Part shown: positions 25,503-56,745 of the stretch, in pieces
Position numbering within the stretch: position 1 is the stretch's first letter
Layout of the letters: every line of letters begins with the position of its first letter
NCBI GenBank assembly: GCA_964577555.1
Contig: CAZNZM010000002.1
Span: 11,741-75,740 of the forward strand
Source of the DNA: an uncultured archaeon
Lineage (GTDB): Archaea > Iainarchaeota > Iainarchaeia > Iainarchaeales > Iainarchaeaceae
Reading direction: 5' to 3'
DNA length: 64,000 bases
Notes under the pieces: model-generated
What the model was told of the DNA's origin: nothing
What the model saw: the letters and a program-made list of their open reading frames with translations, nothing else
Database searches by the model: none
Position numbers and translations under genes: made by a program

Positions 25503-25829
25503 ATGCCTTTTAGTTTGTTTGATTTTCCATCTGATGCTTTGTTTTTTGATTTTGTTTTTCATGAGTTGATGCATGTTTTGATAGGTTTGCTTGCTTTGGT
25601 TTATGGAATGAACGTTCCTGAATTTAGGGTTGGTTTTTTGCTTCCTCGGATTTTTTTTGCTGTTTTTATTCATAATTTTTTTTATTGGTTGACTAATGTT
25701 CATCCAAGCGTTATTTATTCTGTTATTGATTTTGGTTCTGATTCGGTAATTTTATTGAGTTTTGTTTTTACTGGCTTTTTATTGGGTAAGTGGAATAAAT
25801 TAAAAGCTTTTAAAGTTCCTTTTTTTTAG
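25503..25829 (+). CDS. Small hypothetical membrane protein with an HExxH motif inside a TM helix.
   Basis: The internal ATG at 25503 gives about 108 aa. FHELMHVLIGLLALVYG lies within a hydrophobic segment. Confidence 0.3.
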   Translation: MPFSLFDFPSDALFFDFVFHELMHVLIGLLALVYGMNVPEFRVGFLLPRIFFAVFIHNFFYWLTNVHPSVIYSVIDFGSDSVILLSFVFTGFLLGKWNKLKAFKVPFF

Positions 25830-25834
25830 TATTT

Positions 25835-26150
25835 TTTTTGTTTGTCTTTTGGCTTGTTTTTGCAAGCCATGTTTGTTTTGTAAGCAGTTTTTTTGCAGAG
25901 ACATTTTTTTCATTTTTTTTGAAATTAATTTTATTTTTGTATTTGTTTTGGCTGGTAGTTTTTTTGTGAAGCCATTTTTTTTAGGCATTTTTATTTTTTT
26001 GATCTAAATTATTTTTTGTCTTTTTTTTGGTAAAAAATGTTTTTTTATTGTTTGCTTTTTTGCAAGCTGTTTATTTTTTTTGAAAAAATAATTTTTTTGT
26101 TTTTGGTCGTTTTTTTTTGCGAGCCGTTTTAGGCAATTTTATTTTTTTTA
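25835..26150. repeat. GCGAGCC-oligo(T) family repeat array.
   Basis: tgcaagccatgtttg, gtgaagccatttttttt, ttgcaagctgtttatttttttt and ttgcgagccgttttagg. Confidence 0.75.
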
Positions 26151-32233: not shown

Positions 32234-32493
32234 TAATAAGGCATATCATTGTTTCTAATATAAATAGCTTTACTTTTTGTTGGTTGTGTAGAAATCTTGT
32301 TTGCTTTTTAAGCAAGTTTCGCTTATTCTTTTTGATTTTTCAAAACAAAAGCAAGTTAATTTTTCTTATCTTATCTGGTTTATAAGTTCCAAAAATTAAT
32401 TAGTTTGCATTAAGTAAATTATCTGTGTATTGATATAGAATAAAAGTGGTGCTTTTAATTAATGGTAATTGCACTGGCATAGACGCTTCCCAG

Positions 32494-32505
32494 CGTTTAT
32501 ATTGT
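32494..32505 (+). promoter_or_regulatory. TATA-box-like element upstream of mcm.
   Basis: gtttatattg lies about 30-35 nt upstream of ATG 32535. Confidence 0.4.
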
Positions 32506-32534
32506 GTTTTAAGAATAAACTGTGGTGGGGGAAA

Positions 32535-34649
32535 ATGTACGGGGAAGCAGAGAACAAGAAAGTTTCGTTGGATGAAAATCCGCTTGTTGAGAAATTTGGC
32601 GAGTTTTTAAGGCATAAATGTTCTAAGGAAATTGAGAAGCTTGCTCAAAAGTATCCTGAGAAGAGGAGTCTTTTGGTTGATTTTAAGGAGCTTGAGCGTT
32701 TTGATTTTGAGCTTGCAGATGAGTTGCTTGTAAATCCTGACGAGTCGATGGAAGCGATTTCAGAAGCGATAAGCCAAATTGAATTGCCTTTGCTTGATGA
32801 AAAAAAATTCAAGCCGCATGTAAGGTTTTACAATATTCCTGCTGAAAAAAGTCCCATACTTAGAAAACTTAGTGCTGAGCATATTGGCAAGCTTATTTCT
32901 GTTGAGGGTGTTGTAAGGCAAGTTACTGAAGTGCTTCCTAAGTTGAAGTATGCTTTGTGGCGATGCACTAGGTGTGATGCAACTTATAAGATTCCGCAAT
33001 CAAAGAATTATTCAAGGGCTCCTAATTATTGTGCTGAATGTAAGCAGAAGGCGTTTGAGTTGATTGAAGAGAAAAGCGAGTTTATTGATTATCAAAAAAT
33101 TCAGATTCAAGAGCCTCTTGAGTATTTGAAGGGCAATCAGCAGGCTACTAATCTTGATATTTATGTGAGTGATGATTTGGTGAATAAAGCAAGTCCTGGT
33201 GACAGGGTAAAAATAACCGGGGTGCTTAGGCTTGTTCCTCCGAAAGAGAAGAAGACTGTTTATGGAAGGTATTTGGAGGCTGTGTATATTGAAGAAACTG
33301 CGAAGGAGTTTGAAGAAGTTGAAATTACTAAGGAAGAGGAAGAGGAAATAAGGAAGCTTGCCGCGAATGAAAATATTTATGAAATGTTGATTCAAAGCAT
33401 TGCGCCTCATATTTATGGGCATGAAATAATGAAAGAGGCTATTGCGTTGCAGTTGTTTGGCGGGGTTAAGAAGGTTTTGCCAAATGATCAATTTGTTAGG
33501 GGTAATATTCATGTTTTGCTTGTTGGTGATCCTGGAATGGCGAAGTCTGCTGTTTTGAAAGCAACTAATAGTATTGCTCCTAAATCAATATATATTGCTG
33601 GTAAGACTTCAAGTGGTGCTGGTATTTCTGCTACTGCTGTAAAGGACGAGTTTGGTGAAGGTGGTTGGACTTTGAAGGCTGGTGCGCTTGTGCTTGCTTC
33701 TGGTGGCATGGCGATGATTGACGAGTTTGATAAAATGGATTCTGAGGATAGGAGTGCTATGCATGAAAGTATGGAGCAACAAACCATAAGCGTTGCGAAA
33801 GCTGGTATTGTAACAAAATTTAGAACCGAGACTTCCATATTGGCTGCTGCTAATCCTAAATATTCCAGGTTTGACCCTTATAGGCCGTTTATTGAACAAA
33901 TTGATTTGCCTGCGTCTCTCATAAGCAGGTTTGATTTGTTTTTTATGATTAGGGACATTCTTGACAGGACAAAGGATGCTGAAATAGCTGGGCATATACT
34001 TAGGACTCATAAGGCTGGGGAAATGATGTTGCAGTTGTCAAAGAAGGGTGTTCAGAGCAAATCTGAAGAGCTTGAACAAATAAAAGAGCAAATCACTCCA
34101 AGGATTTCAGGGGAGATTCTTAAAAAATATATTTCTTATGCCAGGCAGAATGTTTTTCCGATTTTGAGTGATGAATCTCTTAAAGAGCTTATGGAGTTTT
34201 ATGTTGGTTTGAGGGATCAGGGTAGAAAAGAAGGTTCTTATAGTGCTACGCATAGGCAACTTGAAGGTCTTATAAGGCTTTCTGAAGCCAGTGCGAGAGT
34301 CAGGTTATCTGATGTTGTTGAAAGGCAGGACGTGGAGCGTGCAATAAGGTTGGTTAGGGCTTCGTTGCAAGATCTTGTTACTGATCCTGAAACTGGAAAA
34401 ATAGACATTGATATAATCACTGCTGGGCATACTCATACTACTCTTTCAAATTTGAAGAAGATATTTGATATAATAAAGGAGAAGTGTCAGACTAATGACA
34501 TGGTGTCAATAGAGGAAATAATTGCTGAGGGACAGGCTCAAGGCATTGATGCAAACAAGGTAAGGGATTTGATAGAAAAGTTGCAAAAGAAAGGTGAAAT
34601 TTATATGCCTAGGAATGGTTATTATAAAGCTAAAGGCGAGTTTAATTAA
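32535..34649 (+). CDS. mcm: MCM replicative helicase.
   Basis: It has a Zn-finger CxxC pair (CTRCDA...CAECKQ), Walker A GDPGMAKS, Walker B IDEFDKM, and an arginine finger region. The start is set at the internal ATG 32535. Confidence 0.9.
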   Translation: MYGEAENKKVSLDENPLVEKFGEFLRHKCSKEIEKLAQKYPEKRSLLVDFKELERFDFELADELLVNPDESMEAISEAISQIELPLLDEKKFKPHVRFYNIPAEKSPILRKLSAEHIGKLISVEGVVRQVTEVLPKLKYALWRCTRCDATYKIPQSKNYSRAPNYCAECKQKAFELIEEKSEFIDYQKIQIQEPLEYLKGNQQATNLDIYVSDDLVNKASPGDRVKITGVLRLVPPKEKKTVYGRYLEAVYIEETAKEFEEVEITKEEEEEIRKLAANENIYEMLIQSIAPHIYGHEIMKEAIALQLFGGVKKVLPNDQFVRGNIHVLLVGDPGMAKSAVLKATNSIAPKSIYIAGKTSSGAGISATAVKDEFGEGGWTLKAGALVLASGGMAMIDEFDKMDSEDRSAMHESMEQQTISVAKAGIVTKFRTETSILAAANPKYSRFDPYRPFIEQIDLPASLISRFDLFFMIRDILDRTKDAEIAGHILRTHKAGEMMLQLSKKGVQSKSEELEQIKEQITPRISGEILKKYISYARQNVFPILSDESLKELMEFYVGLRDQGRKEGSYSATHRQLEGLIRLSEASARVRLSDVVERQDVERAIRLVRASLQDLVTDPETGKIDIDIITAGHTHTTLSNLKKIFDIIKEKCQTNDMVSIEEIIAEGQAQGIDANKVRDLIEKLQKKGEIYMPRNGYYKAKGEFN

Positions 34650-40299: not shown

Positions 40300-40640
40300 T
40301 TGCGTCATGTTTTTATTATTCTTGGCTTAATTGTTTTTTTTGTCTTTGTTTTGTTTTTTTTTTCAAGCCGTTTTTTTGTTTGTTAGTTTTTTTAGTTATT
40401 TTTTTGTTTTTTTTATGAGCCTTTTTATTTTTTGAATTTTGTTTTTTTTGTTTTTTTTTGGCGAGCCTTTTTTTGTCATTTTTTTTTGTAAGTCATTTTT
40501 TTCTTGTTTTTTTTTGTGGATTGTTTTTTTTATAAGCCAATTATTTTTTTTGTTTTTTTGGCGAGCGTTTTTTTTGGTATTTTTTTTGAAATTTTGTTTT
40601 TTTTTCTTTTTGGTTTTTATTTTGTCTCGCCTTTTTTGCC
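40300..40640. repeat. GCGAGCC-oligo(T) family repeat array. It contains a 50-bp block identical to 29701..29750.
   Basis: tcaagccgtttttttg, atgagcctttttattttttgaattttg, tggcgagcctttttttg, ataagccaattatttttttt and tggcgagcgttttttttgg. Confidence 0.8.
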
Positions 40641-41030
40641 TACTACTCGTATTAGCGAGCCCCATTTTATGTATTGTACTTCGTTTCCGCTTGCAAGCCC
40701 CGTAACGTCTTTCGGTTTTTCAATTTCGTTTATTGAATAATCTTTTGTGTCCATTATTTGTATTCTGTCTCCCATTATTGCTACTACTTGTGCGTCGCCT
40801 TTTTCAATTATGGGAATTTCAACATCGGCATCCACCGGTTTGAGAAGTGTTTTTTTGACGTCTCTGAATATTCCCATTCCTGTGGCCCTGATTTTTGCCG
40901 CTCCGTGTTTTCCCGGTTTTGATTTTTCAACGCCTTTTATTTGACAGGGTTCTCCTTCAATTAGCGCGTATGATCCTTCTTTAAGGTCTCCTGCGTATCC
41001 GAATTTTTTTTCTCCTTCAGTTATTACCAT
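40617..41030 (-). CDS. eif5a: Translation initiation factor 5A (aIF-5A, hypusine-containing).
   Basis: It has the hypusination loop SKPGKHGAAK and SH3-like plus OB domains. Length is 137 aa. Confidence 0.85.
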   Translation of the reverse strand: MVITEGEKKFGYAGDLKEGSYALIEGEPCQIKGVEKSKPGKHGAAKIRATGMGIFRDVKKTLLKPVDADVEIPIIEKGDAQVVAIMGDRIQIMDTKDYSINEIEKPKDVTGLASGNEVQYIKWGSLIRVVGKKGETK

Positions 41031-41175: not shown

Positions 41176-41628
41176 ATGTTCAGGTTTGTTAAGAGAATAT
41201 TTGATAAAGGCAATGATTGTCGTAATCTTGCCGTTTTTATTGATGGCCCAAATATTTTGAGGAAGGATTTGGGTGTTAGTCTTGCCGATATTAAGAAAAA
41301 TCTTGAAAAATTTGGAAAGGTGAAGATTGGCAGGGTTTTTATGAATCAATATGCTTCTGAAAAACTTGTTGAAGCTGTTGTGAATCATGGTTTTGAGTCT
41401 GTGATTACTGTTGGTGATGTTGATGTTTCAATGGTTGCTGATGCTGTTGAAGCAGTATTTAATCCGCAGATTCACACTATTGTTTTTGTGACGAGGGATT
41501 CGGATTTTTTGCCTGCTATTATAAAAGCCAAGCGTGAGGGAAAGGAAACAATTGTTATGCTTACTGAAGAGGCCAGTTCTGTTTCTCTTAAAAATAATGC
41601 TGATCATGTTATTTTGCTTGGGAAGTGA
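41176..41628 (+). CDS. NYN-domain (LabA/DUF88-like, PIN-fold) putative ribonuclease.
   Basis: The acidic residues are arranged as in NYN domains: LAVFIDGPN, VGDVDVSMVADA and VFVTRDSDFLP. Confidence 0.6.
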   Translation: MFRFVKRIFDKGNDCRNLAVFIDGPNILRKDLGVSLADIKKNLEKFGKVKIGRVFMNQYASEKLVEAVVNHGFESVITVGDVDVSMVADAVEAVFNPQIHTIVFVTRDSDFLPAIIKAKREGKETIVMLTEEASSVSLKNNADHVILLGK

Positions 41629-41634
41629 TTTTGC

Positions 41635-42129
41635 ATGAATCTTCCTGTAGGTGATATAATTGGAAGGGGTATTAATTTAAAGGAAGTGGATATTCGTAAG
41701 CTTATTGAAGGTTTTTATGACAAGGGTTTTTCTGGTTATCTTGTTGCTTCTCTTTATGGTTTTGATTCGGTTGAAGAGGGCGTATTGCTTTTCAAGGATG
41801 GTTTGCTTATTGCCGCTATTTACGAGTATGAATTTTATGGAATAACTATTTTTGGCGATGTTGCTTTGCCACATATATTCAATTCTTTTGCTGCTGATTT
41901 TATTGTGGCTGATATAGTGTCTCTTTCTAATCAGCAAATTGATCTTGTTACTGCTTTTAATGATAAAGCTAAGTTGAATAAGGTTTTGCAAAAAGGCGAT
42001 GTTGGAAGGTTAATGGTCAAAGCGTTTTCTAAAGATCTTGCCAAATCTGTATTGTCCAATTTGGTAAGTTCTGCAGAGGACAAGGCTGAGATTTTTAAGA
42101 AGCTCGGTTTAGCTGGTTTGGGTGAGTGA
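41635..42129 (+). CDS. Hypothetical protein, possibly a Roadblock-like fold, translationally coupled to neighbours.
   Basis: It is 164 aa. The start lies 7 bp after the NYN stop, and the stop overlaps the next start. Confidence 0.35.
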   Translation: MNLPVGDIIGRGINLKEVDIRKLIEGFYDKGFSGYLVASLYGFDSVEEGVLLFKDGLLIAAIYEYEFYGITIFGDVALPHIFNSFAADFIVADIVSLSNQQIDLVTAFNDKAKLNKVLQKGDVGRLMVKAFSKDLAKSVLSNLVSSAEDKAEIFKKLGLAGLGE

Positions 42130-42590
42130 TTGTGTTTAGGGGTGCCAAGCTGTTTTTGAAAAAGTTTGCTGAAAAAATTCTTGATGTTGATGATACTTCT
42201 AAGCCAGAGTCCCAGTTGCGTTTGTTGGAAGGTTATTCTGAGCGTTTCAAGTTTGAGTATGATTTGTCAGACATTGATAATTTTTTGAAGGTGTTGAAGA
42301 AGAAGCATCTTGTTGATGAAATTGTTGTTTCGACTTTGCATGGCAGTGCTATTGGTTCTACTAATGGCGATTCTGTTTCTCAGGCTGTTTCTAGTGCAGC
42401 GCTTTTCAATTATGTAAAGTCTGAGCTTCCTAAAAGCGAGGCTTTGATTGTAAAGTCTAATGGTTGGCACATGATTTTTAATTATGGAAAAAAACTTTAT
42501 ATAGTAAAGGCTTCTAGTAATCTTAATATGGTTGAGTTGAAAGCATTGGCCCGCGAAATAGAGTCTTTTCTTGAAAAGAATGCTATTTAA
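42126..42590 (+). CDS. Roadblock/LC7-domain protein.
   Basis: EIVVSTLHGSAIGSTNGDS...ALIVKSNGWHMIFNYGKKLYIVKASSNLNMVELK matches the Roadblock alpha-beta core pattern. Confidence 0.5.
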   Translation: MIVFRGAKLFLKKFAEKILDVDDTSKPESQLRLLEGYSERFKFEYDLSDIDNFLKVLKKKHLVDEIVVSTLHGSAIGSTNGDSVSQAVSSAALFNYVKSELPKSEALIVKSNGWHMIFNYGKKLYIVKASSNLNMVELKALAREIESFLEKNAI

Positions 42591-42624
42591 TAGTTGCTTT
42601 TACATAACGTTTTAATAATCTAAA

Positions 42625-42636
42625 TTCTATAAATAC
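42625..42636 (+). promoter_or_regulatory. TATA-box-like element upstream of minD.
   Basis: ttctataaatac lies about 25 nt upstream of the candidate GTG start at 42655. Confidence 0.4.
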
Positions 42637-42654
42637 TTTGGCTTGGTGTTTTTT

Positions 42655-43452
42655 GTGGTAAGGGTAATTTCGGTAATTTCAGGCAAAGGCGGGGTGGGAA
42701 AGACCACTATTGCAGCCAATCTTGGCGTGGCTCTTGCAAAGAGAGGGCTTAAAGTGCTTCTCATTGATGCGGATATTGCCATGGCTAATACTTCTTTGCT
42801 TTTGAATATGCAGAATTCTCCGATTACTTTGCATGATGTTCTTTTGGGCGAGGCTTCTGTGCAGGACGCTATTTATGATGGTCCTGCTGGTTTGAAATTT
42901 ATGCCTTCTGGTCTTAGTCTTGAAAATTATCGCAGGGTTGATTCTGAAAGGTTGCAGTCAATAATTGATTCAGTGAGGGTTCAATTTGATTTTATAATTT
43001 TGGATTGTGCGGCTGGAATTGAAAAGAATGTGCTTGCCGCGATTTCAGCTTCTGATGAAGTTCTTTTGGTTGCTATGCCTACTAGTCCAAGCATTGCTGA
43101 TGTTTTAAAAGCAAAGATTACTGCCCAGCGTCTTGGTGCAAAGCCGATTGGAACTATTTTGAATTTTGTTCGTGATGAAAGGGGCGAGGTTCAAAAGGAT
43201 GAAGTAATGAAGATTTTGGAGCTTCCTGTGCTTGGTTCTGTGCCTTATGACGACGAAGTGAGGCGCAGTTTTATGCAGGAAAATATGATGCCTTTTATTT
43301 TGAGGTCTCCTTCCTGTCCTGCTGCTGTTGCATTGCAAAAGATTGCTGCAAGGCTTGCTGGTTTGCCAATGCTGCAAGAAGAGAAGAAAACGGGTTTTTT
43401 GAGCGGTTTTTTAAATAAATTGTTTTCTATTTTTAAAGGTAAGCCAAAGTGA
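42655..43452 (+). CDS. minD: MinD/ParA-family P-loop ATPase (deviant Walker A).
   Basis: It has SGKGGVGKTT and LLIDADIAMANTS. The start is set at GTG 42655. The track ORF starts at TTG 42643. Confidence 0.8.
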   Translation: MVRVISVISGKGGVGKTTIAANLGVALAKRGLKVLLIDADIAMANTSLLLNMQNSPITLHDVLLGEASVQDAIYDGPAGLKFMPSGLSLENYRRVDSERLQSIIDSVRVQFDFIILDCAAGIEKNVLAAISASDEVLLVAMPTSPSIADVLKAKITAQRLGAKPIGTILNFVRDERGEVQKDEVMKILELPVLGSVPYDDEVRRSFMQENMMPFILRSPSCPAAVALQKIAARLAGLPMLQEEKKTGFLSGFLNKLFSIFKGKPK

Positions 43453-43467
43453 TGGGGGGTTTTTAGT

Positions 43468-43686
43468 ATGAGTGGAAGGCCATTTGATCTTTTGAGTGCG
43501 GCAATAGGCAAGGATGTTATTGTTGAATGCAAGGGGAATGTTTCTTACCGTGGCACTCTTAAAGCATTTGACGTGCATATGAATGTTGTTCTTGAGAATG
43601 CTGAAAAGTTTGAGAATTCCGACCCAAAAAATAAGTATGGCAAGCTTCTTATTCGTGGCGAGAATGTTATACTTATTAGTCCTTGA
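43468..43686 (+). CDS. Sm-like archaeal protein (SmAP/LSm).
   Basis: At 72 aa, it has the Sm1/Sm2 motifs (VIVECKGNVSYRGTLKAFDVHMNVVL, IRGENVILI). Confidence 0.8.
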   Translation: MSGRPFDLLSAAIGKDVIVECKGNVSYRGTLKAFDVHMNVVLENAEKFENSDPKNKYGKLLIRGENVILISP

Positions 43687-43691
43687 TTTTT

Positions 43692-43785
43692 GGGCCCTTA
43701 GTGTAGAGGCTAACACGCGTGCATGGCATTAAGTTTGAACTTACCAATGTGCACGATACGCCGGGTTCGAGTCCCGGAGGGTCCA
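43692..43785 (+). tRNA. tRNA-Ala (anticodon GGC) with a 21-nt intron at the canonical 37/38 position; no encoded CCA.
   Basis: The acceptor pair GGGCCCT/AGGGTCC has G3:U70. The D-stem GTGT/ACAC is perfect. The anticodon stem CGTGC/GCACG is separated by 28 nt, namely the loop ATGGCA-[intron ttaagtttgaacttaccaatg]-T. The T-arm is CCGGG-TTCGAGT-CCCGG. Confidence 0.8.
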
Positions 43786-43931
43786 TTTTGCATTTTTTTT
43801 AAAGTTTGGTGCTAAAAATATTGGTTTTAAGCAATCGCTTGTTTTTCCGGATTTTTAAGTTGTTTTACAATAAAAAAATCCATTTTTTTTGGCACCCCTC
43901 AATAATTAATAATAGTATTTCGTAAAATAGT

Positions 43932-45620
43932 ATGACTTCCATGTTGTTTCCTGCCAATAAAAAGAAAATTCTTAAGGAATCGATTACTAGGTTGTTGCAA
44001 TTAGGCATACCTGACTTGGATATTATTCAAAATCTTCAAAGTGTTGGAGTTCCTGAATCTCTTGCAAAGTCTATTTTAAAGGAAACTAAGGAAGAGTTGG
44101 CTGGAAAACAATCCAAACAATCTTTAAAGCCTGTTTCTGAAATTAAAAATTTGGTTGCTTCTGGTGAAAAACAAGTTGAAGACAAACCCGTTTCAAAAAG
44201 CGATTCCGAATCAGCAGTTTCTGGTGATGTTGAATCTGAAGAAGAATTGATTGACGAGTTTTATGATGATAGGGAAAAAGAAGATGATTCTAATTTGCCC
44301 GATTCTCTCAGCGAAATAAAAAAGTCAATAGTTGAAGATAAGGTTGAAACGGATTCCAGTTCTGGGAAAAAAAATTCTTCTTTGGAAATTGAGACTTCTG
44401 TTTCTCACGAGGCAAGCGATGTTTCTTCTCTTTGGGAGAAAGGCATACTTGCCACTGTTGATGCAAAGTTAACCGAAATGGAGCGAATAAGAGATGAATT
44501 GGACAAGGTTCTGGACCAAAAAATTTCAGAGAAAATGAAGGTTGAAATTAAGAAAGTGGAAGCTGTTCTTGAATCTGAACGCGCTCTTTTTTACAACAAA
44601 ATAGACAGCCATCTTGAATCAAAGGCCGAAGAATTAAAGAATGTGATTGCTGCACAATCCAAGCAGTTGCAGGATGTTAATGCCAAGGCTGCTGATATTC
44701 TTTCCAAGGTCGGAGTTGAAAAAAAGTTTAATGCGGAGCTTTTGAATAGTTTGAATGAAAAAATTGCCAGTATTGAGACTTTGCGTAGCCAAATGCTTTC
44801 TCAATTGAATCAATCCCAACTTGAACAGAGTTTGAAGTTCAAAAATTTTATGGATGAATCTGCAAAAAGGCGTGAGGAACTTGAGGCGAGAATTTCGAGG
44901 GCTTTGCAACTTGAATCAAAGATAGCTGAAGGGCTTATTGAGGACGCCAAGAATCGTATTGAGGAGATGAGGCTTGACAAGGATGCAGAGCTTTCAAAGA
45001 AGATTAACGAGAAAGTTAAGGAGCTTGATGATATTATTGCGAAGATTGATCCGAAGGGAATTGTTGAAACCGGCAAGCGCATTAAAATTCTTGATGAACA
45101 AGTAACCAAAAAAATAAGCGAGATTGACGCATTGTTGGAAAAGAAGTTTAATGATGCTGATCGTAAGATTGAGGAAAGCATTTCTGAAATGCAGGCCGCT
45201 TTGGAGAAAGCAGAGGATGAGAGGTTTGCAAAATTGAAGGAGGAGTATGCTCAAGCAATGGATGAGATGTTTAGCCAAGAGCTTGAAATTTGGGATAAAA
45301 AAATAAAATCCAAAGAGGAAGAAATAGAAAAGTTGAAGGAGCAGATTGATATTGAAAAATTTAATGCTTCTCTTGAGTCGCTTGATATTTTTAAGGATCA
45401 GTTTGTGAATACTATAAGCAAAAGCATTGATGATTATAACAGGGCTAAAAAGGAGCTTGCTGAAAAAGTTATTGCAAGGGACAAGGCGATTAATGATTAT
45501 TTGAAGAGAATTGATTCAAAGTTGGCTGAGTTGAGCGAGTTTCAGCAAAAGTTTTCAAAAAAGTTTGCCGAGATGTTGGACAAGACGGAAAGTTCGGTTG
45601 AGAAAAAACAAAAAAAGTAG
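43932..45620 (+). CDS. Long coiled-coil protein (filament- or scaffold-like) with an N-terminal globular domain and an acidic Ser/Glu linker.
   Basis: It is 562 aa. Continuous heptad-type E/K/L-rich sequence runs from about residue 150 to the C-terminus. No Walker or ABC motifs are present. Confidence 0.5.
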   Translation: MTSMLFPANKKKILKESITRLLQLGIPDLDIIQNLQSVGVPESLAKSILKETKEELAGKQSKQSLKPVSEIKNLVASGEKQVEDKPVSKSDSESAVSGDVESEEELIDEFYDDREKEDDSNLPDSLSEIKKSIVEDKVETDSSSGKKNSSLEIETSVSHEASDVSSLWEKGILATVDAKLTEMERIRDELDKVLDQKISEKMKVEIKKVEAVLESERALFYNKIDSHLESKAEELKNVIAAQSKQLQDVNAKAADILSKVGVEKKFNAELLNSLNEKIASIETLRSQMLSQLNQSQLEQSLKFKNFMDESAKRREELEARISRALQLESKIAEGLIEDAKNRIEEMRLDKDAELSKKINEKVKELDDIIAKIDPKGIVETGKRIKILDEQVTKKISEIDALLEKKFNDADRKIEESISEMQAALEKAEDERFAKLKEEYAQAMDEMFSQELEIWDKKIKSKEEEIEKLKEQIDIEKFNASLESLDIFKDQFVNTISKSIDDYNRAKKELAEKVIARDKAINDYLKRIDSKLAELSEFQQKFSKKFAEMLDKTESSVEKKQKK

Positions 45621-45624
45621 TTTT

Positions 45625-45940
45625 TTTTGTTTTTGTGAGTTGTTTTTTTAGGCGTTTTATTTTTTTTGTTTGGTGTTTTTTTTTGAATTTGCTTTTTTTG
45701 TGTTGTTTTTTTTGTGATTTTATTTTTTTTAATTCCAAATTGTTTTGTCTTTTTTTGTGGCTTGGATTTTTTGTTTGAATTTTTGTTTTTTTTGCGAGCC
45801 GAATTTTTTTTATTTTTGAAATTTAATTTGTTTTTTTTGTTTGATCTGATTTTTTTGCTGGCATATTTAGTTTTTTTTCTATTTTTATTTTTTTCTTTTT
45901 AATGTTTGTTTTGTTTTTTTTTGTTTTACCAAAATTATTA
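45625..45940. repeat. GCGAGCC-oligo(T) family repeat array.
   Basis: ttgcgagccgaatttttttt plus T-rich units. Confidence 0.65.
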
Positions 45941-51954: not shown

Positions 51955-52677
51955 TTGTATCCAAGTTCTCAGCCTGCAAACTATGATCGTGCAGCCACGA
52001 TGTTTTCGCCTGATGGAAGGCTTTATCAGGTGGAGTATGCATCTAAAATAGTTTCGCAAGGCACTATGGGTGTTGCTTGTAAGTTTTCTGATGGTGTTGT
52101 TTTTGCTGCTGATAAGAAGATAACCAGCAGGCTTTTGATTCCCGACTCTGTTGAGAAAATTTTTCCTATTGATGATCATATTATTGCGGTTTCTGCGGGG
52201 CTTGTTGGTGATGCCAGGCGTCTTATTGGCATTGCTAGGCAGAAGGCTCAAGAGAATAGGATTTATTATGATAGTGAGATTCAAATAGAGACTCTTGTTA
52301 AGGAAGTTTCAAACATAAAACAGCTTTATACTCAATATGGCGGTATGAGGCCTTTTGGCATTTCATTTATTGTTGGAGGTGTTGATAGTACTGGCAAGCG
52401 TCTTTTTGAAACAGAGCCTTCTGGTGCTCTTGCCGAATATCATGCAATTGCCATAGGCAAAAACAGGAATAAAGCCATGGATTTTTTTGAAAAGGAATAT
52501 AAGGAGAATCTTTCAAGGGATGCTGGGGTAAGGCTTTTGCTTAAAGCTCTTGAGTTTGGGCTTGACGAGAAGGAGAAGCTTGACATTAAAAGGGTTCAAG
52601 TAATGTATGTTGATTCTTCAAAAAAGTTTACTTCCATATCCCAAGAAGAGCTTAAGTTAATAATTTCAAAACAATGA
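51955..52677 (+). CDS. psmA: Proteasome alpha subunit.
   Basis: It has YDRAATMFSPDGRLYQVEYA. A TTG start is forced because an in-frame TGA lies 9 nt upstream and the conserved YDR precedes the first ATG. Confidence 0.9.
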   Translation: MYPSSQPANYDRAATMFSPDGRLYQVEYASKIVSQGTMGVACKFSDGVVFAADKKITSRLLIPDSVEKIFPIDDHIIAVSAGLVGDARRLIGIARQKAQENRIYYDSEIQIETLVKEVSNIKQLYTQYGGMRPFGISFIVGGVDSTGKRLFETEPSGALAEYHAIAIGKNRNKAMDFFEKEYKENLSRDAGVRLLLKALEFGLDEKEKLDIKRVQVMYVDSSKKFTSISQEELKLIISKQ

Positions 52678-52720
52678 GTTTTGATTGAATTTGTTTTTTT
52701 TAGGGAAAAGGTAATTTAAA

Positions 52721-53422
52721 ATGGTAAGGGTAGAGGATGCGGTAATTGCTCGGTTTGAACATTCTGGGGAGAGATTTGAAATACTTGTAGATCCCAACCT
52801 TGCAATGGATTTGAAGCATGGCAAAGATGTTGATTTTGATGATCTTTTAGCCATTGATTCTATTTTCAAGGATGCGCATAAGGGCGAGGTTAAGAGTGAG
52901 GAGTCTTTGAGAAAGGTTTTTGGAACCACTAATGTTTATGATGTTGCGAGGCGTATTATACTTGAAGGCGAGGTGCAATTGACAACTCAACAAAGGAAGG
53001 AGATTGCCGATAGGAAAAGAAAGGAGATAATTAATTTTATTTCAAGAAACGCTATGAATCCACAGACAAAGGCTCCGCATCCTGCCCAAAGAATTGAGGC
53101 TGCTCTTAATGAGCTTAAATTTAATGTTGATATAAATAAGCCTACTCAGGAGTTGGTGCAAGAGGCTCTTAAAGGCATTAGAAAGTTGCTTCCTATTTCA
53201 ATGGATAAGCTTAATATTGCGGTAAAAATTCCTGCTGAGTTTTCAGGCAAGGCTTCTGTTATTTTGCATAAGTATGGTTTGAAAAAGGAGGAGTGGCAGA
53301 ATGATGGTAGTTTGGTTGCGCTTCTTGAATTGCCTGCTGGAGCAAAGCAGGATCTTTTCAATGAATTGAATCATTTGACGCATGGACAGGTTGAGTCAAG
53401 GATTTTGGAGAACAAGGGGTGA
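52721..53422 (+). CDS. sdo1: Ribosome maturation protein SDO1/SBDS homolog.
   Basis: It has the N-terminal FYSH domain VRVEDAVIARFEHSGERFEILVDP. It sits in the conserved position between psmA and rrp4. Confidence 0.8.
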   Translation: MVRVEDAVIARFEHSGERFEILVDPNLAMDLKHGKDVDFDDLLAIDSIFKDAHKGEVKSEESLRKVFGTTNVYDVARRIILEGEVQLTTQQRKEIADRKRKEIINFISRNAMNPQTKAPHPAQRIEAALNELKFNVDINKPTQELVQEALKGIRKLLPISMDKLNIAVKIPAEFSGKASVILHKYGLKKEEWQNDGSLVALLELPAGAKQDLFNELNHLTHGQVESRILENKG

Positions 53423-53428
53423 GTTTTT

Positions 53429-54103
53429 GTGAAAAGATTGGTTATACCTGGTGAATTGGTGACTGAGGAGAGGAAGAAGTTGGGTTCTCATGTTTTTGTG
53501 CGTGAGGGCAAAATTTATTCTGATTCCATTGGTTTGGTGAATGATGAGAGTGATTTTGCTTCTGTCGTGCCTCTTGAAGGCAGGTATATGCCTCAAGTTG
53601 GTGATATTGTAATAGGGGTTATTACTGGGGAGAAATTTGCTGTTTATGTCATTGATATAAATAGTTTTTATCAAAGTTTTGTTTTGAAGAAGGATATTCG
53701 TGAAATGCTTAAACCTGGTAGTATTGTTTCTGCAAAAGTTGTTAAGGTTAATGAGCTTAATGAAGTGGAACTTGCAATGCCGAGGCTTTTTTTTGGTGGT
53801 GAAGTTATTGATATTTCTCCTGTGAAAATACCTCGTGTTATAGGCCGGGATGGTTCTATGTTGAATTTGCTTAAAGAGGGTACCGGCTCTATGATAATGG
53901 TTGGCAGGAATGGGCGTATTTGGGCAAAAGGCGGCAATATTGATTTGCTCAAAAAGGCTCTTGCCAAGATTGAGTCGGAAGCTCATTTGGATAATCTTAC
54001 TAACAGAGTTGCTGAGTTTCTTAATTTGCATTCTGTTAATAAGCCGAAATTGGCTTCTGATGGTTTGCATGATGGTTTTGATAATGAAGAGGTTGATCAT
54101 TAA
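53429..54103 (+). CDS. rrp4: Exosome RNA-binding subunit Rrp4 (S1 + KH).
   Basis: It has an S1 domain (GDIVIGVITGE...VSAKVVKV) and a KH domain (RVIGRDGSMLNLL). It starts at GTG. Confidence 0.85.
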   Translation: MKRLVIPGELVTEERKKLGSHVFVREGKIYSDSIGLVNDESDFASVVPLEGRYMPQVGDIVIGVITGEKFAVYVIDINSFYQSFVLKKDIREMLKPGSIVSAKVVKVNELNEVELAMPRLFFGGEVIDISPVKIPRVIGRDGSMLNLLKEGTGSMIMVGRNGRIWAKGGNIDLLKKALAKIESEAHLDNLTNRVAEFLNLHSVNKPKLASDGLHDGFDNEEVDH

Positions 54104-54870
54104 TGGGTAAAAAGAAGGAAGTTGAAATGACATATGTGGATTCAAAAGGTAAAAGGCTTGATGGAAGAAAAGTTGATGAGCTTAGGCCTATAAAAATAAC
54201 TTGTGGAGTCATACCAATGGCTGATGGTTCTGCTTACCTTGAATGGGGGCAGAATAAGGTTATTGCTGCGGTTCATGGGCCTTCTGAATGTTTGCCAAAG
54301 CATACTGCTTCGCCGTATAAGGCAATGGTGAAGTTTAGTTATAGGATGGCTACTTTCAGCGTGCCTGATAGAAAAAATCCCAAGCCTGGCAGAAGGGAGA
54401 TTGAGATTTCGAAGGTTTGTGGTGAAGCTCTTGAAAGAGTGATTTTTACTGAGCGTTTTCCAAATACTGAAATTAATATAACTGTTGAAATAATTGACAG
54501 CAACGCTGGTTCAAGGATTGCTGCTCTTACTGCAGCTTCCGTGGCGCTTGCAGATGCTGGCATTCCAATGAGGGACATGGTTTGTGGCACAAGTGTTGGC
54601 AAGGCTGGTGGCAAGTTGATTGTGGATTTGAATAAGGATGAAGAGGATGCTCCTGATGCTGTTGATATTCCTGTTGCAATAATGCCTAATACTGGTGAGA
54701 TAGTTTTGTTGCAGCTTGACGGGATATTGACTCGCAAAGAGTGGGATGATGCTGTGAAAATGGCTTTTGAAGCAGCGCAAAAGGTTTATGAAATACAAAG
54801 ACAGGCTCTTAAAGCCAAATATGCTGAGCCTGATGCAGTTAGTGAGAAAGGAGTTGAGCAGGATGAGTAA
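54103..54870 (+). CDS. rrp41: Exosome RNase PH subunit Rrp41.
   Basis: It has the RNase PH fold (RLDGRKVDELRPI, DGSAYLEWG). Its ATG overlaps the rrp4 stop. Confidence 0.85.
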   Translation: MGKKKEVEMTYVDSKGKRLDGRKVDELRPIKITCGVIPMADGSAYLEWGQNKVIAAVHGPSECLPKHTASPYKAMVKFSYRMATFSVPDRKNPKPGRREIEISKVCGEALERVIFTERFPNTEINITVEIIDSNAGSRIAALTAASVALADAGIPMRDMVCGTSVGKAGGKLIVDLNKDEEDAPDAVDIPVAIMPNTGEIVLLQLDGILTRKEWDDAVKMAFEAAQKVYEIQRQALKAKYAEPDAVSEKGVEQDE

Positions 54871-55642
54871 TGGTTTTTGGGATTTGAGGGTTGATAAGAT
54901 TATTGCTGATCTCAAGGAAGGCAAGAGGCAGGATGGCAGGAAAGTTGACGAGCTTAGAAACGTGGTTATTACAAATAACATAAGCGAGAATGCTGCTGGT
55001 TCAGCAAGAGTTAAATGGGGCTATACTGATGTTATATTTGGAGTAAAATTTGAAATTGCTGAACCTTATCCTGATACTCCTGATGAAGGCGGCATAAGTG
55101 TAGGAGTTGAACTTTTGCCAATGGCGGATCCTGATTATGAAGTTGGTCCGCCTTCGGAAGAGGCTATTGAGCTTTCAAGAGTTGTTGACAGGGGAATAAG
55201 AGAGAGCAAGGGTATTGATTTTAAGGAGCTTTGCCTTGTTGAAGGTGAAAAAGTTTTGATGGCTTATGTGGATGGTTATGTCATTAATAATGATGGCAAC
55301 CTTTTTGATGCGTGTGCAATTGGTGCTTTGAGTTCTCTTCTAAATTGCAGACTTCCAAAAGTTGAAGACGGCAAAATCGTGGCAGGAGAATACTCTGGCA
55401 AATTGAAGTTGAAGTACAAACCAATTTTAAGCACTTTTGGCAAAATAGGGACTGTCATTGTTGCTGATCCTTTGTTGGCTGAAGAAAAAGCAATGTCTGC
55501 AAGGTTTTCGGTTTCTTTGATGGACGATGACAGAATATGTGCGTTTCAAAAAGGACTTTCAGGTTCTTTTAAATTGGACGAAATAAACAATTGTCTTGAC
55601 ATTGCCGCAAAGAACAGTAAGCTTTTAAGAAAGTTATTGTAG
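54863..55642 (+). CDS. rrp42: Exosome RNase PH-like subunit Rrp42.
   Basis: It has QDGRKVDELRNVV. ATG 54863 overlaps the rrp41 stop in the ATGAGTAA arrangement. The longer track ORF is a read-through artefact. Confidence 0.8.
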   Translation: MSNGFWDLRVDKIIADLKEGKRQDGRKVDELRNVVITNNISENAAGSARVKWGYTDVIFGVKFEIAEPYPDTPDEGGISVGVELLPMADPDYEVGPPSEEAIELSRVVDRGIRESKGIDFKELCLVEGEKVLMAYVDGYVINNDGNLFDACAIGALSSLLNCRLPKVEDGKIVAGEYSGKLKLKYKPILSTFGKIGTVIVADPLLAEEKAMSARFSVSLMDDDRICAFQKGLSGSFKLDEINNCLDIAAKNSKLLRKLL

Positions 55643-55653
55643 GAGTGTAAATT

Positions 55654-56010
55654 ATGGGTAGTACAAAAAAAGTTAAAAGTACAGGGCGTTTTGGCTCGCG
55701 TTATGGCGTAGGGATAAGAAAAAGGCTTCTTGATATAGAGCCAGAACAAAAAGCAAAAAACAAATGCCCTGATTGTGGTTCTTATAATGTTAAAAGGGTA
55801 AGCAAAGGTATTTTTGAATGCAAAAAATGCAATGCCAAATTTATTGGCGGAGCCTATTTGCCTCAAACTCTTGCCGGCAAAATTATAAATCAAATGGTTT
55901 CACTTAAAAGTTTCTCACAAGAAATGCTTGCTTCGCTTTCAAAGGCAAAGGGCGAAGAATTGCAAAGTGATGGCCAACAAGGTGATAATGAAAAAAAGGA
56001 GGTTGCTTGA
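55654..56010 (+). CDS. rpl37ae: 50S ribosomal protein L37ae (eL43) with a C-terminal extension.
   Basis: It has the C4 ribbon CPDCG...CKKCN and the GVGIRKRL core. About 25 extra C-terminal residues are present. Confidence 0.85.
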   Translation: MGSTKKVKSTGRFGSRYGVGIRKRLLDIEPEQKAKNKCPDCGSYNVKRVSKGIFECKKCNAKFIGGAYLPQTLAGKIINQMVSLKSFSQEMLASLSKAKGEELQSDGQQGDNEKKEVA

Positions 56011-56142
56011 ATGTATAAATGTTTGCAATGCGGAAAGGAAGTTTCTAACCTAGTGGCTGGTGCGATCAGGTGTCCTGCTTGCGGTTCAAAAATTTTTTCC
56101 AAAATGAGAGACTCTATTTTAAAAAATGTGAAGGCAGTTTGA
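56011..56142 (+). CDS. rpoP: DNA-directed RNA polymerase subunit P (RpoP/Rpb12).
   Basis: A 43-aa ORF absent from the track reads MYKCLQCGKEVSNLVAGAIRCPACGSKIFSKMRDSILKNVKAV, a C4 zinc ribbon. It is in the conserved position after rpl37ae. Confidence 0.7.
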   Translation: MYKCLQCGKEVSNLVAGAIRCPACGSKIFSKMRDSILKNVKAV

Positions 56143-56378
56143 TGGAACAAGTTTTTTTGGAATTCAGGTTTCAAAACGAAACCTGTGCCAATTTTGCGGT
56201 TTTGGCATTATCGCCTGAATTGAATAGAAGATTAGGTCAACGTTCTTCAATTTTAATACAAAGCAATAAAAATATTGTCAAGCTTAAAATATTTGCAAAT
56301 GACAAGCATGCTTTGAAAGCTTCAGAGCATTCTTATAAAAGTTTGTTGGGTCTTTGTCTTAAACTTTGCAATTTATGA
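56142..56378 (+). CDS. pcc1: KEOPS complex subunit Pcc1-like.
   Basis: The 78-aa MEQVFLEFRFQNETCANFAVLALSPEL...ALKASEHSYKSLLGLC fits the Pcc1 pattern F-E-F-x-S-x-x-A...L-x-P-E and the C-terminal helix. Its ATG overlaps the rpoP stop. Confidence 0.5.
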   Translation: MEQVFLEFRFQNETCANFAVLALSPELNRRLGQRSSILIQSNKNIVKLKIFANDKHALKASEHSYKSLLGLCLKLCNL

Positions 56379-56391
56379 AGGTGGATTTTTT

Positions 56392-56745
56392 ATGGTTGAT
56401 TTGAACAAAAACATTCAAGAATTTGAAAGAAGCAGGGTTCAACTTGCCGCAATAGAAAACCAAAGCAATACTCTTTCAATGCAAAGCAAATTCATAGATG
56501 AAGCGTTGAAAGAATTAAAAGAAACTAAAGAGGAAAAGGTTTACAAGGCTGTTGGAAACATTTTAATACTTTCAGATTCAAAAAAAGTCATGAAAGAACT
56601 TGAAGAGCAGAAGGAAACAATTGCCTTGAGATTGAAGACAATTAAAAAGCAGGAAGAAGCAGTTATTGACAAAATGAACAAGCTCAAAAACGAAATTGAA
56701 AATGCTCAAAAAAGTTCCACTGGAGAAAATAAAGAGGAAAATTAA
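56392..56745 (+). CDS. pfdB: Prefoldin beta subunit.
   Basis: It is a 117-aa coiled-coil hairpin protein. It is in the conserved superoperon position. Confidence 0.75.
   Translation: MVDLNKNIQEFERSRVQLAAIENQSNTLSMQSKFIDEALKELKETKEEKVYKAVGNILILSDSKKVMKELEEQKETIALRLKTIKKQEEAVIDKMNKLKNEIENAQKSSTGENKEEN

Follow-up and report, generated by a model that had tools for sequence, protein, structure and literature searches.

The 64-kb stretch of DNA analyzed here (the window) belongs to a contig of an Iainarchaeota archaeon (Diapherotrites, DPANN). An earlier note on its sequence had described a block of seven features, all of which were found in their places (Table 1). The shared orientation of the block was confirmed. 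At least three apparent transcription units can be distinguished within it. The surroundings are purely housekeeping. Annotation, which covered about two thirds of the ORFs in the window, revealed informational and housekeeping genes like those for MCM, Topo VI, RIO kinase, aIF1A/2beta, MetRS, aIF5A and PEP synthase as well as L15e, RNase P p30, proteasome alpha, SBDS, Rrp41/42, L37ae and prefoldin beta.

Table 1. Features of the block within the 64-kb window.
Feature	Position	Strand	Evidence
NYN-domain protein, TIGR00288 family, 150 aa	41176..41628	+	PF01936 and TIGR00288 profile matches
DUF2226-family protein, 164 aa, PATAN-related	41635..42129	+	orthologue matches to PF09987
Roadblock/LC7-fold protein, 154 aa (152 aa from GTG 42132)	42126..42590	+	AF2 model and Foldseek
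TATA-like element TATAAATA	42628..42635	+	read from sequence
Archaeal-type MinD ATPase, 265-269 aa by start codon	42643..43452	+	TIGR01969
Sm-like archaeal protein (SmAP), 72 aa	43468..43686	+	PF01423, NF001963
tRNA-Ala(GGC), 21-nt intron 43729-43749 at canonical position 37/38	43692..43785	+	intron-mode ARAGORN and intron removal
Coiled-coil-like protein, 562 aa	43932..45620	+	composition and heptad contrast

The first gene encodes a protein for which a NYN/PIN fold had been suggested. It matches PF01936 with 88.7 bits (cut-off 24.2; E=7e-25) and TIGR00288 with 174.3 bits, just below the cut-off of 178.45. The acidic motifs FxDGPN, DxDV and TRDSDF are kept across 20 orthologues. By its match to the model and its retained acidic catalytic residues, the protein belongs to the NYN family, and it is predicted to be a Mg-dependent RNase. 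Its N-terminal segment is basic and amphipathic (hydrophobic moment 0.92).

Both small proteins encoded downstream had been regarded as Roadblock-like, which holds for the 154-aa protein; the 164-aa protein belongs to DUF2226. The gap between the NYN and DUF2226 genes is short, as described, and measures 6 nt instead of 7 bp. The window's 164-aa protein itself scores 18.0 bits against PF09987, under the cut-off of 22. The family was matched by 31 of its 37 orthologues (best 8.5e-11), and distant relatives reach 24-52 bits, so that by these profile matches the protein is a DUF2226 member at the family level. Weak matches to DUF4388/PatA_N (PF14332) occur in 11 of the 37 orthologues (best E=0.0028), and one Theionarchaea relative matches both DUF2226 (1e-13) and DUF4388 (9e-9). 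From these matches, the DUF2226 and PATAN families look weakly related. The AF2 model (pLDDT 86, pTM 0.78) shows the element order beta-alpha-beta-beta-beta-beta-alpha-beta-alpha-beta-alpha, which is unlike Roadblock. Foldseek against the PDB gave no match at E<=0.001 (best E=0.069), and in hhalign its profile showed no resemblance to that of the Roadblock protein next to it (probability 0.1%). By these three results, the 164-aa protein is not Roadblock-like. Its orthologues share an invariant N-terminus (MNLPxG) and the C-terminal motif IFKKLGL. With no more than 194 cluster representatives in a set of 1.84 billion proteins, the family is small.

For the 154-aa protein, the proposed resemblance to Roadblock/MglB was borne out by structure prediction. 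Its AF2 model has an overall pLDDT of 77, with block values of 82-90 in residues 50-152, which follow the order alpha-beta-beta-alpha-beta-beta-beta-alpha. Foldseek against the PDB assigned a probability of 1.0 to Asgard Roadblock, MP1/p14, LAMTOR and MglB, with 82 matches at E<=1e-3 and a lowest E of 1.6e-5. According to this predicted structure, the protein carries the Roadblock fold. It has no match in Pfam or NCBIfam, and no Roadblock family appears among the Pfam matches at E<=1 of 36 members of its family; one homologue bears the UniRef name ‘Roadblock/LC7’. The fold is preceded by a helical N-terminal extension of about 45 aa with the conserved motif LDxDDTxxP, in which D22, T24 and P27 are invariant in the family. 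Among its 42 homologues, all those with taxon-specific names are from Diapherotrites. The described 4-bp overlap with the DUF2226 gene exists if the start at 42126 is used. More likely, translation starts at GTG 42132, 2 nt past the DUF2226 stop, because this start matches both the JGI gene call and the N-termini of the homologues.

The next gene encodes the deviant-Walker-A MinD/ParA ATPase that had been recognized before. It matches TIGR01969 with 284.7 bits (cut-off 201.75), which identifies it as an archaeal MinD, and contains the deviant Walker A sequence SGKGGVGKT (KGGVGKT motif). The closest solved protein is MinD-1 of A. fulgidus (1HYQ), which aligns over the full length with E=5e-63. 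The C-terminus, GFLSGFLNKLFSIFKG, is a predicted amphipathic helix of the membrane-targeting type, and motifs resembling KKGFL..(I/L)F were also found at the C-terminus of MinD from distant syntenic orthologues. Between the Roadblock gene and MinD lies a spacer of 52-64 bp containing the TATA-like element TATAAATA, about 24 nt upstream of the start GTG 42655; from its sequence and position it may act as the promoter element of MinD. Scans for sigma-70 promoters and terminators are uninformative for archaea. Within the 64-kb window, no ORF combines a P-loop with an NKxD motif as in small GTPases, and the NTPase adjoining the Roadblock gene is MinD rather than a Ras-like GTPase. Of the proposed Roadblock pair coupled to MinD, one Roadblock protein remains, the other member being DUF2226.

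The Sm protein reported to follow MinD was confirmed by PF01423 (79.8 bits, E=1.2e-22) and NF001963 (94.7 bits). The intron-containing tRNA behind it is missed by default ARAGORN and by Rfam at the gathering threshold. ARAGORN in intron mode detects it but labels it Gly(ACC). This label is overturned by removal of the intron, which yields tRNA-Ala, as the earlier note had it, with a GGC anticodon and G3:U70. Downstream of Sm, most relatives have an orthologue of this tRNA-Ala(GGC), which may contain or lack an intron.

The last gene of the block encodes a protein of three parts. A conserved domain of about 55 aa at the N-terminus is followed by a linker that is variable and acidic/Ser-rich (residues 61-165, rich in S/E/D/K) and by a conserved helical region of about 400 aa, which opens with LWEKGILATVDAKL. 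This region is rich in K/E/L, contains 1.5% Pro+Gly and shows heptad contrast; by composition it appears to be coiled-coil-like and alpha-helical. No sequence match was found in Pfam, NCBIfam or the PDB. The three-part architecture is common to 16 further distinct homologues (17 aligned sequences including the window's own, 3 of them cut by the end of the locus). Where a locus holds both genes, the coiled-coil gene always lies downstream of Sm at a distance of 245-2679 bp, with variable genes in between and its own promoter-like region. It was found only in Iainarchaeia-type loci. The architecture had been described correctly; membership of the protein in a module with MinD is less well backed, given this loose spacing and restricted occurrence. 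In one relative (L004) a weakly HEAT-like protein was seen.

Gene order is kept well beyond close relatives. MinD is located at most 1.2 kb downstream of DUF2226 on the same strand in 29 of the 32 distinct DUF2226 loci with enough flank, and at 1.5 kb in one more. An overlap of 1-4 bp between the two genes is frequent. In loci without a Roadblock gene between them, it is 4 bp in Micrarchaeota (L034) and 1 bp in L039; L037 has a gap of 2 bp. The adjacency was found in Iainarchaeia, in Micrarchaeota and in further divergent lineages and persists at a DUF2226 divergence corresponding to profile E-values of 1e-13 to 1e-25. All sampled Iainarchaeia species contain the DUF2226-(Roadblock)-MinD module; no MinD was found near a multi-domain DUF2226 protein of Theionarchaea. 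Since most loci are from Iainarchaeia and phylogenetically non-independent, these counts correspond to roughly six to eight independent lineages. A Roadblock homologue is inserted between DUF2226 and MinD in 24 of the 32 loci, including the distant L040, and in L041-L043 its position is taken by a protein of 151-169 aa with a weak collinear alignment (hhalign E=0.003). It was not detected at the loci of Micrarchaeota, L037 and L039 and is therefore dispensable at the locus. In 23 of 26 loci, the gene directly behind MinD is Sm, and the two commonly share 4 bp. DUF2226 is directly preceded by NYN in 19 of 30 loci; in the other 11, NYN is missing from this position.

Conserved order can persist without functional coupling, because DPANN genomes are compact and the region is a housekeeping string. 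The genes could thus form a housekeeping superoperon that inertia or joint expression keeps intact in streamlined genomes, with each product acting independently. MinD would then work without partners or with ones whose genes lie elsewhere, and the functions of DUF2226 and the Roadblock protein would be unrelated to it. Such an arrangement would fit the informational and housekeeping content of the whole 64-kb window and the equally good conservation of aIF5A, Sm and tRNA-Ala around the block. HVO_0596, which is co-transcribed with MinD2 of Haloferax as its operon partner, shows no phenotype and no demonstrable interaction (PMC11588486). However, in L039, where aIF5A, NYN and Sm are absent and every other neighbour differs, DUF2226 and MinD are still adjacent. 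The overlaps of 1-4 bp in loci lacking the Roadblock gene and the small size of the DUF2226 family, of which almost every instance found adjoins MinD, also argue against mere inertia. We consider a superoperon of independent genes rather unlikely.

On the basis of these identities, folds and gene linkages, we propose that DUF2226-(Roadblock)-MinD forms the functional core of a MinD-centred module for spatial organisation in DPANN archaea, a tentative reading with a probability of about 0.45. The tight spacing of the NYN, DUF2226 and Roadblock genes in the window was counted in its favour. The cell-polarity or positioning module suggested in the earlier note, which had been staked on a Roadblock fold and a conserved gene order, is plausible for these three genes, by gene linkage and by analogy, and both features were found. 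It is weaker for the coiled-coil and NYN proteins. Several observations count against the module: the spacer with the TATA-like element parts the small-protein genes from MinD, the Roadblock gene is dispensable at the locus, the Theionarchaea protein lacks a neighbouring MinD, and Sm is coupled to MinD as tightly as DUF2226 yet has no obvious positioning role. The case of HVO_0596 likewise advises caution.

MinC and MinE are absent from archaea, and we therefore propose the two small co-encoded proteins as dedicated partners of MinD. In the proposed module, MinD is expected to form dimers with ATP and to attach to the membrane by its C-terminal amphipathic helix. The role of an adaptor or regulator in contact with MinD and/or the cargo would fall to the PATAN-related DUF2226 protein, and the Roadblock protein with its conserved N-terminal helical peptide might modulate the nucleotide cycle, like MglB for MglA or MinE for MinD. 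Candidate cargo would be the FtsZ division ring, the type-IV-pilus/archaellum machinery or the coiled-coil protein as a scaffold. NYN, Sm and tRNA-Ala are probably housekeeping neighbours, co-transcribed or co-localised RNA-metabolism genes of the string that need not join the mechanism. PATAN domains are membrane-localising protein-interaction output modules, often encoded near MglA/MglB (10.1101/2021.06.11.447907), and according to the work cited in PMC3149612, Roadblock/MglB proteins are established regulators of NTPases. As DUF2226 almost always and the Roadblock protein usually lie beside MinD in DPANN, they are the first concrete candidates for archaeal MinD partners; DUF2226 is the candidate most tightly linked to MinD. 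A more far-reaching version, in which both are the missing MinE/MinC-type partners and, with MinD, make up a system specific to archaea that patterns the membrane and places division or surface machinery in DPANN cells, seems doubtful at present.

An RNA-centred complex is a further reading, with NYN, Sm and MinD in, for example, a membrane-associated RNA-processing or decay assembly and DUF2226 and Roadblock as adaptors. NYN before and Sm after the MinD core in several DPANN lineages, the common MinD/Sm overlap, the intact catalytic motifs of NYN and its conserved amphipathic N-terminus would agree with it. However, the frequent absence of NYN from its position and the lack of both NYN and Sm in L039 make it very unlikely. 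Both are near-universal archaeal genes with general roles, and a MinD-dependent RNA machine would, to our knowledge, be unprecedented in archaea.

Attachment pili, which belong to the type-IV-pilus-type machines, matter to DPANN lifestyles. A FleN/FlhG-like trio could set the number or placement of such surface machines instead of acting in division. Support for this reading comes from the literature: among the regulators associated with archaeal T4P systems, FleN/MinD (arCOG00589) is the most abundant, and T4P loci often encode Roadblock proteins (arCOG02603) (PMC4858521). A PATAN domain binds to the pilus motor PilB1 as well as to the platform PilC (10.1101/2021.06.11.447907), and MinD4 and MinD2 of Haloferax position archaella and chemosensory arrays (PMC11588486). 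However, no gene for pilin, PilB/ArlI or TadC was identified in the syntenic loci or among the annotated genes of the window (about two thirds of its ORFs). The core housekeeping location and the presence in all sampled Iainarchaeia species fit a core cell-cycle role better, and we regard a pilus or archaellum regulator as improbable.

The proposed MinD-centred module can be compared with several known systems. Bacterial MinCDE likewise contains a MinD ATPase with deviant Walker A and C-terminal amphipathic helix, and the small co-encoded proteins could fill the roles of the MinE activator and MinC adaptor. Their folds (Roadblock; DUF2226/PATAN-like) are unrelated, however, and Pfam and NCBIfam gave no MinC or MinE match among the genes of the block. 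Oscillation and FtsZ inhibition are without evidence here. Among archaeal MinDs, a role in positioning has been shown by experiment only for MinD4 and MinD2 of Haloferax volcanii, whose partners are not established (PMC11588486, PMC13228585). They belong to the same family, and a small gene is likewise conserved downstream of MinD2. The partner genes differ, haloarchaeal MinD4 has its own C-terminal extension, and the cargo in Haloferax is the archaellum and chemosensory arrays. The Dip/Arco divisome-positioning oscillator, described in 2026 preprints, is an archaeal three-gene operon as well, with a membrane-binding NTPase, a small regulator and a further component. It consists of an Era-like GTPase, a SepF-like DUF2073 protein and a Zn-ribbon protein (PMC13228585, 10.64898/2026.07.23.738820); none of these domains was detected among the block's genes by Pfam and NCBIfam. 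PomXYZ of Myxococcus combines a ParA/MinD-like ATPase with coiled-coil scaffold proteins, an analogy that may apply to the downstream coiled-coil protein and the weakly HEAT-like protein of L004. There is no sequence relationship, and the coiled-coil gene is only loosely linked here. In the literature, we found no description of the DUF2226-Roadblock-MinD combination and encountered no Roadblock-fold regulator of a ParA/MinD-type ATPase. If the proposed module is real, a Roadblock-fold protein would regulate such an ATPase and not a small GTPase. MglA/MglB with nearby PATAN proteins resembles it in that a Roadblock-fold and a PATAN-related protein are encoded beside a P-loop NTPase. Here, the NTPase is of the ParA/MinD type instead of Ras-like, and the Roadblock protein has diverged beyond the reach of the Pfam model and bears an additional helical region at its N-terminus. 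By analogy with MglA/MglB, the P-loop NTPase would be expected to alternate between association with a cellular location and release from it.

Every open reading frame that the earlier note had listed for the block was found again, on the plus strand and with the same coordinates. The window sequence at the block is identical to a region of a 149-kb JGI metagenome contig, and all close homologues with a taxon-specific name belong to Candidatus Diapherotrites / Iainarchaeum (DPANN). The acidic motifs of the NYN protein are kept across 20 orthologues, and its N-terminus is basic and amphipathic. The description of the ATPase as a MinD with deviant Walker A motif was confirmed by the motif KGGVGKT and by a TIGR01969 score above the cut-off. 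Its C-terminal helix is GFLSGFLNKLFSIFKG, and the nearest solved structure is Archaeoglobus MinD-1 (1HYQ, E=5e-63).

Features of the block and the basis of their assignment
Feature	Position	Strand	Basis
NYN protein	41176-41628	+	PF01936, 88.7 bits; TIGR00288, 174 bits (slightly below cut-off)
DUF2226 protein (164 aa)	41635-42129	+	
Roadblock-fold protein (154 aa)	42126-42590	+	
Archaeal-type MinD	42643-43452	+	TIGR01969, 284.7 bits (cut-off 201.75)
Sm protein	43468-43686	+	family model match
tRNA-Ala(GGC)	43692-43785	+	21-nt intron 43729-43749 at position 37/38; G3:U70; orthologous genes
Coiled-coil-like protein (562 aa)	43932-45620	+	three-part architecture

The two small proteins in front of MinD had been taken as a Roadblock pair, which is not supported because they belong to different families and folds. 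The 154-aa protein gave no match in Pfam or NCBIfam. Its AlphaFold model, built from 36 homologues, reached a pLDDT of 77 overall with blocks of 82-90 across the domain, and residues 50-152 follow the order alpha-beta-beta-alpha-beta-beta-beta-alpha. With this model, Foldseek returned a probability of 1.0 to Asgard Roadblock proteins, MP1/p14, LAMTOR subunits and MglB. The protein carries an additional N-terminal helical region of ~45 aa, in which a D-x-T-x-x-P motif is invariant. A start at GTG 42132, resulting in 152 aa, is more likely for this gene. The 164-aa protein is, judged by its orthologues, a member of the DUF2226 family. PF09987 was matched by 31 of its 37 orthologues and DUF4388/PATAN, weakly, by 11 of them. 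Modelling was successful here too, with a confident pLDDT of 86, but the strand order is unlike that of the Roadblock-fold protein and Foldseek detected no significant fold match in the PDB. A comparison of both profiles revealed no similarity (hhalign, probability 0.1%), and together with the fold data this rules out two Roadblock paralogues. Sequence searches of the PDB with both small proteins and the coiled-coil-like protein gave nothing meaningful.

DUF2226 is a small family: a search of 1.84 billion proteins gave 194 cluster-50 representatives at E<=1e-3. Many members outside Iainarchaeia (the Micrarchaeota locus L034, 2964-3992; proteins P0161, P0177, P0184, P0197 and P0213) possess a low-complexity tail of 90-180 aa rich in Pro, Ala and Lys, and several of these tails finish with a short conserved basic helix, e.g., AEKLKKLLLKEK. 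Such a tail resembles a flexible tether carrying a peptide for binding or membrane contact at its end. A DUF2226-Roadblock fusion was considered for the 342-aa Micrarchaeota protein and rejected, as its tail is of this low-complexity type and hhalign to the Roadblock profile remained empty.

For the analysis of gene order, 44 loci were gathered from 22 GTDB Iainarchaeia species, metagenomic relatives, Micrarchaeota and three further divergent DUF2226 lineages, in addition to a Theionarchaea locus. The scan of the genome collection used one very specific peptide pattern and therefore yielded Iainarchaeia only; metagenomes were scanned for divergent DUF2226 with a 6-sequence subgroup alignment. 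Mapping by profile and phmmer resulted in 34 distinct DUF2226 loci. MinD lies at most 1.2 kb downstream of DUF2226 on the same strand in 29 of the 32 loci with at least 1.6 kb of downstream sequence, across several DPANN lineages, and in one more at 1.5 kb. The exceptions are a rearranged Iainarchaeia locus and a multi-domain Theionarchaea DUF2226 protein. A Roadblock homologue is located between both genes in 24/32 loci, including the distant L040. In L041-L043 this position is taken by a protein of 151-169 aa with a weak collinear alignment (hhalign E=0.003, probability 11%). Where no Roadblock gene lies between them, the reading frames of DUF2226 and MinD share 4 bp in Micrarchaeota and 1 bp in L039, and are separated by 2 bp in L037. 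DUF2226-MinD is the strongest and most specific signal, with the Roadblock-fold protein as a frequent third member.

Every gene annotated in the window has a housekeeping role (MCM, Topo VI, RIO kinase, aIF1A/2beta, MetRS, aIF5A, PEP synthase, L15e, RNase P p30 and a proteasome-SBDS-exosome-L37ae-prefoldin string), and the block could be an inert string of housekeeping genes. The metagenomic locus L039, however, retains the DUF2226-MinD pair without aIF5A, NYN and Sm. No other single observation speaks as strongly against mere synteny, and we regard the inert string as rather unlikely. L039 (contig Ga0072504_109197; NCBI protein NPA86056.1) comes from a MAG labelled 'bacterium' by NCBI; an archaeal source is indicated by the genes for Sec61beta, an RLI ABC protein, TYW2 and NFACT at the locus.

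Of the other genes that the earlier note had combined with these, Sm comes after MinD in 23 of 26 loci, and the two usually overlap by 4 bp. NYN precedes DUF2226 in 19/30, and the coiled-coil gene was seen only in Iainarchaeia-type loci. An RNA-centred assembly of NYN, Sm and MinD would fit the conserved Sm position, but with NYN so often missing and the pair in L039 lacking both it appears improbable. The 562-aa protein has no family match; 16 further distinct homologue sequences share its architecture, in which an acidic linker of variable sequence joins two conserved parts, an N-terminal domain of ~50 aa and a helical region rich in Lys, Glu and Leu and nearly free of Pro and Gly. Where a locus contains both genes, it starts 245-2679 bp downstream of Sm, with variable genes in between. 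Some relatives encode a 189-203-aa protein there (L004 8103-8672; L006 8123-8734), with a weak HEAT-repeat match in L004 and none in Pfam in L006; at about this place the window contains only the tRNA and a spacer.

This tRNA was detected neither by default ARAGORN nor by Rfam at gathering threshold. ARAGORN in intron mode parsed it as Gly(ACC). Removal of the intron gives a canonical tRNA-Ala(GGC), in agreement with the intron-containing tRNA noted before, and Gly(ACC) was dropped in view of G3:U70, the clean 5-bp anticodon stem and the orthologous tRNA-Ala genes. Most related loci also have a tRNA-Ala(GGC) downstream of Sm, either intronless or with an intron of 18-30 nt.

The spacing in the window suggests three units. 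The first would be NYN-DUF2226-Roadblock, with a 6-nt gap followed by an overlap or a 2-nt gap. The second follows a 52-64 bp spacer with TATAAATA and comprises MinD, then Sm after a gap of 15 nt, and the tRNA 5 nt past the Sm stop codon; the coiled-coil gene after a 145-nt T-rich spacer would be the third. Scans for sigma-70 promoters and terminators, models inappropriate for archaea, were not above shuffled expectation.

Several further features of the window were observed. Of the 32 2-kb windows of 1-64000, 30 have a positive GC skew, and the cumulative skew climbs nearly throughout, dipping only in the other two; 28 have a negative AT skew (minimum -0.55). The plus strand is G- and T-rich irrespective of gene orientation. 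This looks like a single replication arm with unusually strong skew. Extremely lysine-rich small ORFs occur on the minus strand within T-rich spacers of the plus strand (40396-40665, 45490-45738, 25800-25988), one overlapping the aIF5A 3' end and another running antisense to the final part of the coiled-coil gene. Two were called genes by JGI (89 aa and 41 aa). Such ORFs may be real basic peptides or may arise artefactually from spacers with A/T runs. A classic archaeal exosome superoperon (51955-56745: proteasome alpha, SBDS, Rrp41, Rrp42, L37ae, prefoldin beta) has an ORF (53429-54103) between SBDS and Rrp41, and L15e, RNase P p30 and an HD protein upstream. The window MCM (32469-34649, 726 aa) has no intein family match; the MCM of two relatives contains an intein (L004 417-3047; L005 1-1479), one with a LAGLIDADG endonuclease domain. 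Neither an FtsZ motif nor a P-loop combined with NKxD was found in any window ORF.

ParA/MinD ATPases require partner proteins, which stimulate ATP hydrolysis and provide the link to the cargo. To our knowledge, MinC and MinE are absent from archaea although MinD is present, and the partners of archaeal MinD are an old question. In Haloferax, MinD4 and MinD2 place the motility machinery and not the division ring, with partners not established (PMC11588486). Roadblock/MglB proteins are described in PMC3149612, citing Koonin and Aravind 2000, as NTPase regulators. PATAN domains are membrane-localising interaction modules which bind the pilus motor, and their genes often lie near MglA/MglB (10.1101/2021.06.11.447907). 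Archaeal type IV pilus loci are associated with FleN/MinD genes as well as with Roadblock genes (PMC4858521), as would suit a dedicated pilus or archaellum regulator; no pilus gene is among the annotated window genes, and we consider this reading unlikely. Among PubMed Central papers under open licence and bioRxiv preprints, searches that also covered PATAN with MinD and arCOG00589 gave no description of DUF2226/PF09987 function or of the DUF2226-MinD linkage.

Based on the gene linkage and the literature on MinD, Roadblock and PATAN, a positioning module built around MinD, in which DUF2226 and the Roadblock-fold protein are candidate partners, would be the most likely reading, with a probability of roughly 0.45. 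DUF2226, almost always directly upstream of MinD, and the often interposed Roadblock-fold protein are two concrete partner candidates, and the linkage covers several DPANN lineages of minimal genomes. Regulation of a ParA/MinD ATPase by the Roadblock-fold protein, if true, would widen the known reach of an ancient NTPase-regulator family and give a first functional lead on DUF2226. Division-ring placement in Haloferax depends on the Dip/Arco GTPase system, which is unrelated to MinD (2026 preprints PMC13228585; 10.64898/2026.07.23.738820); identity of the block with this system is excluded because the domains differ. As a MinD/ParA module the block is of an already known kind and not categorically new; its new part would be the previously unrecognised families of the candidate partners.
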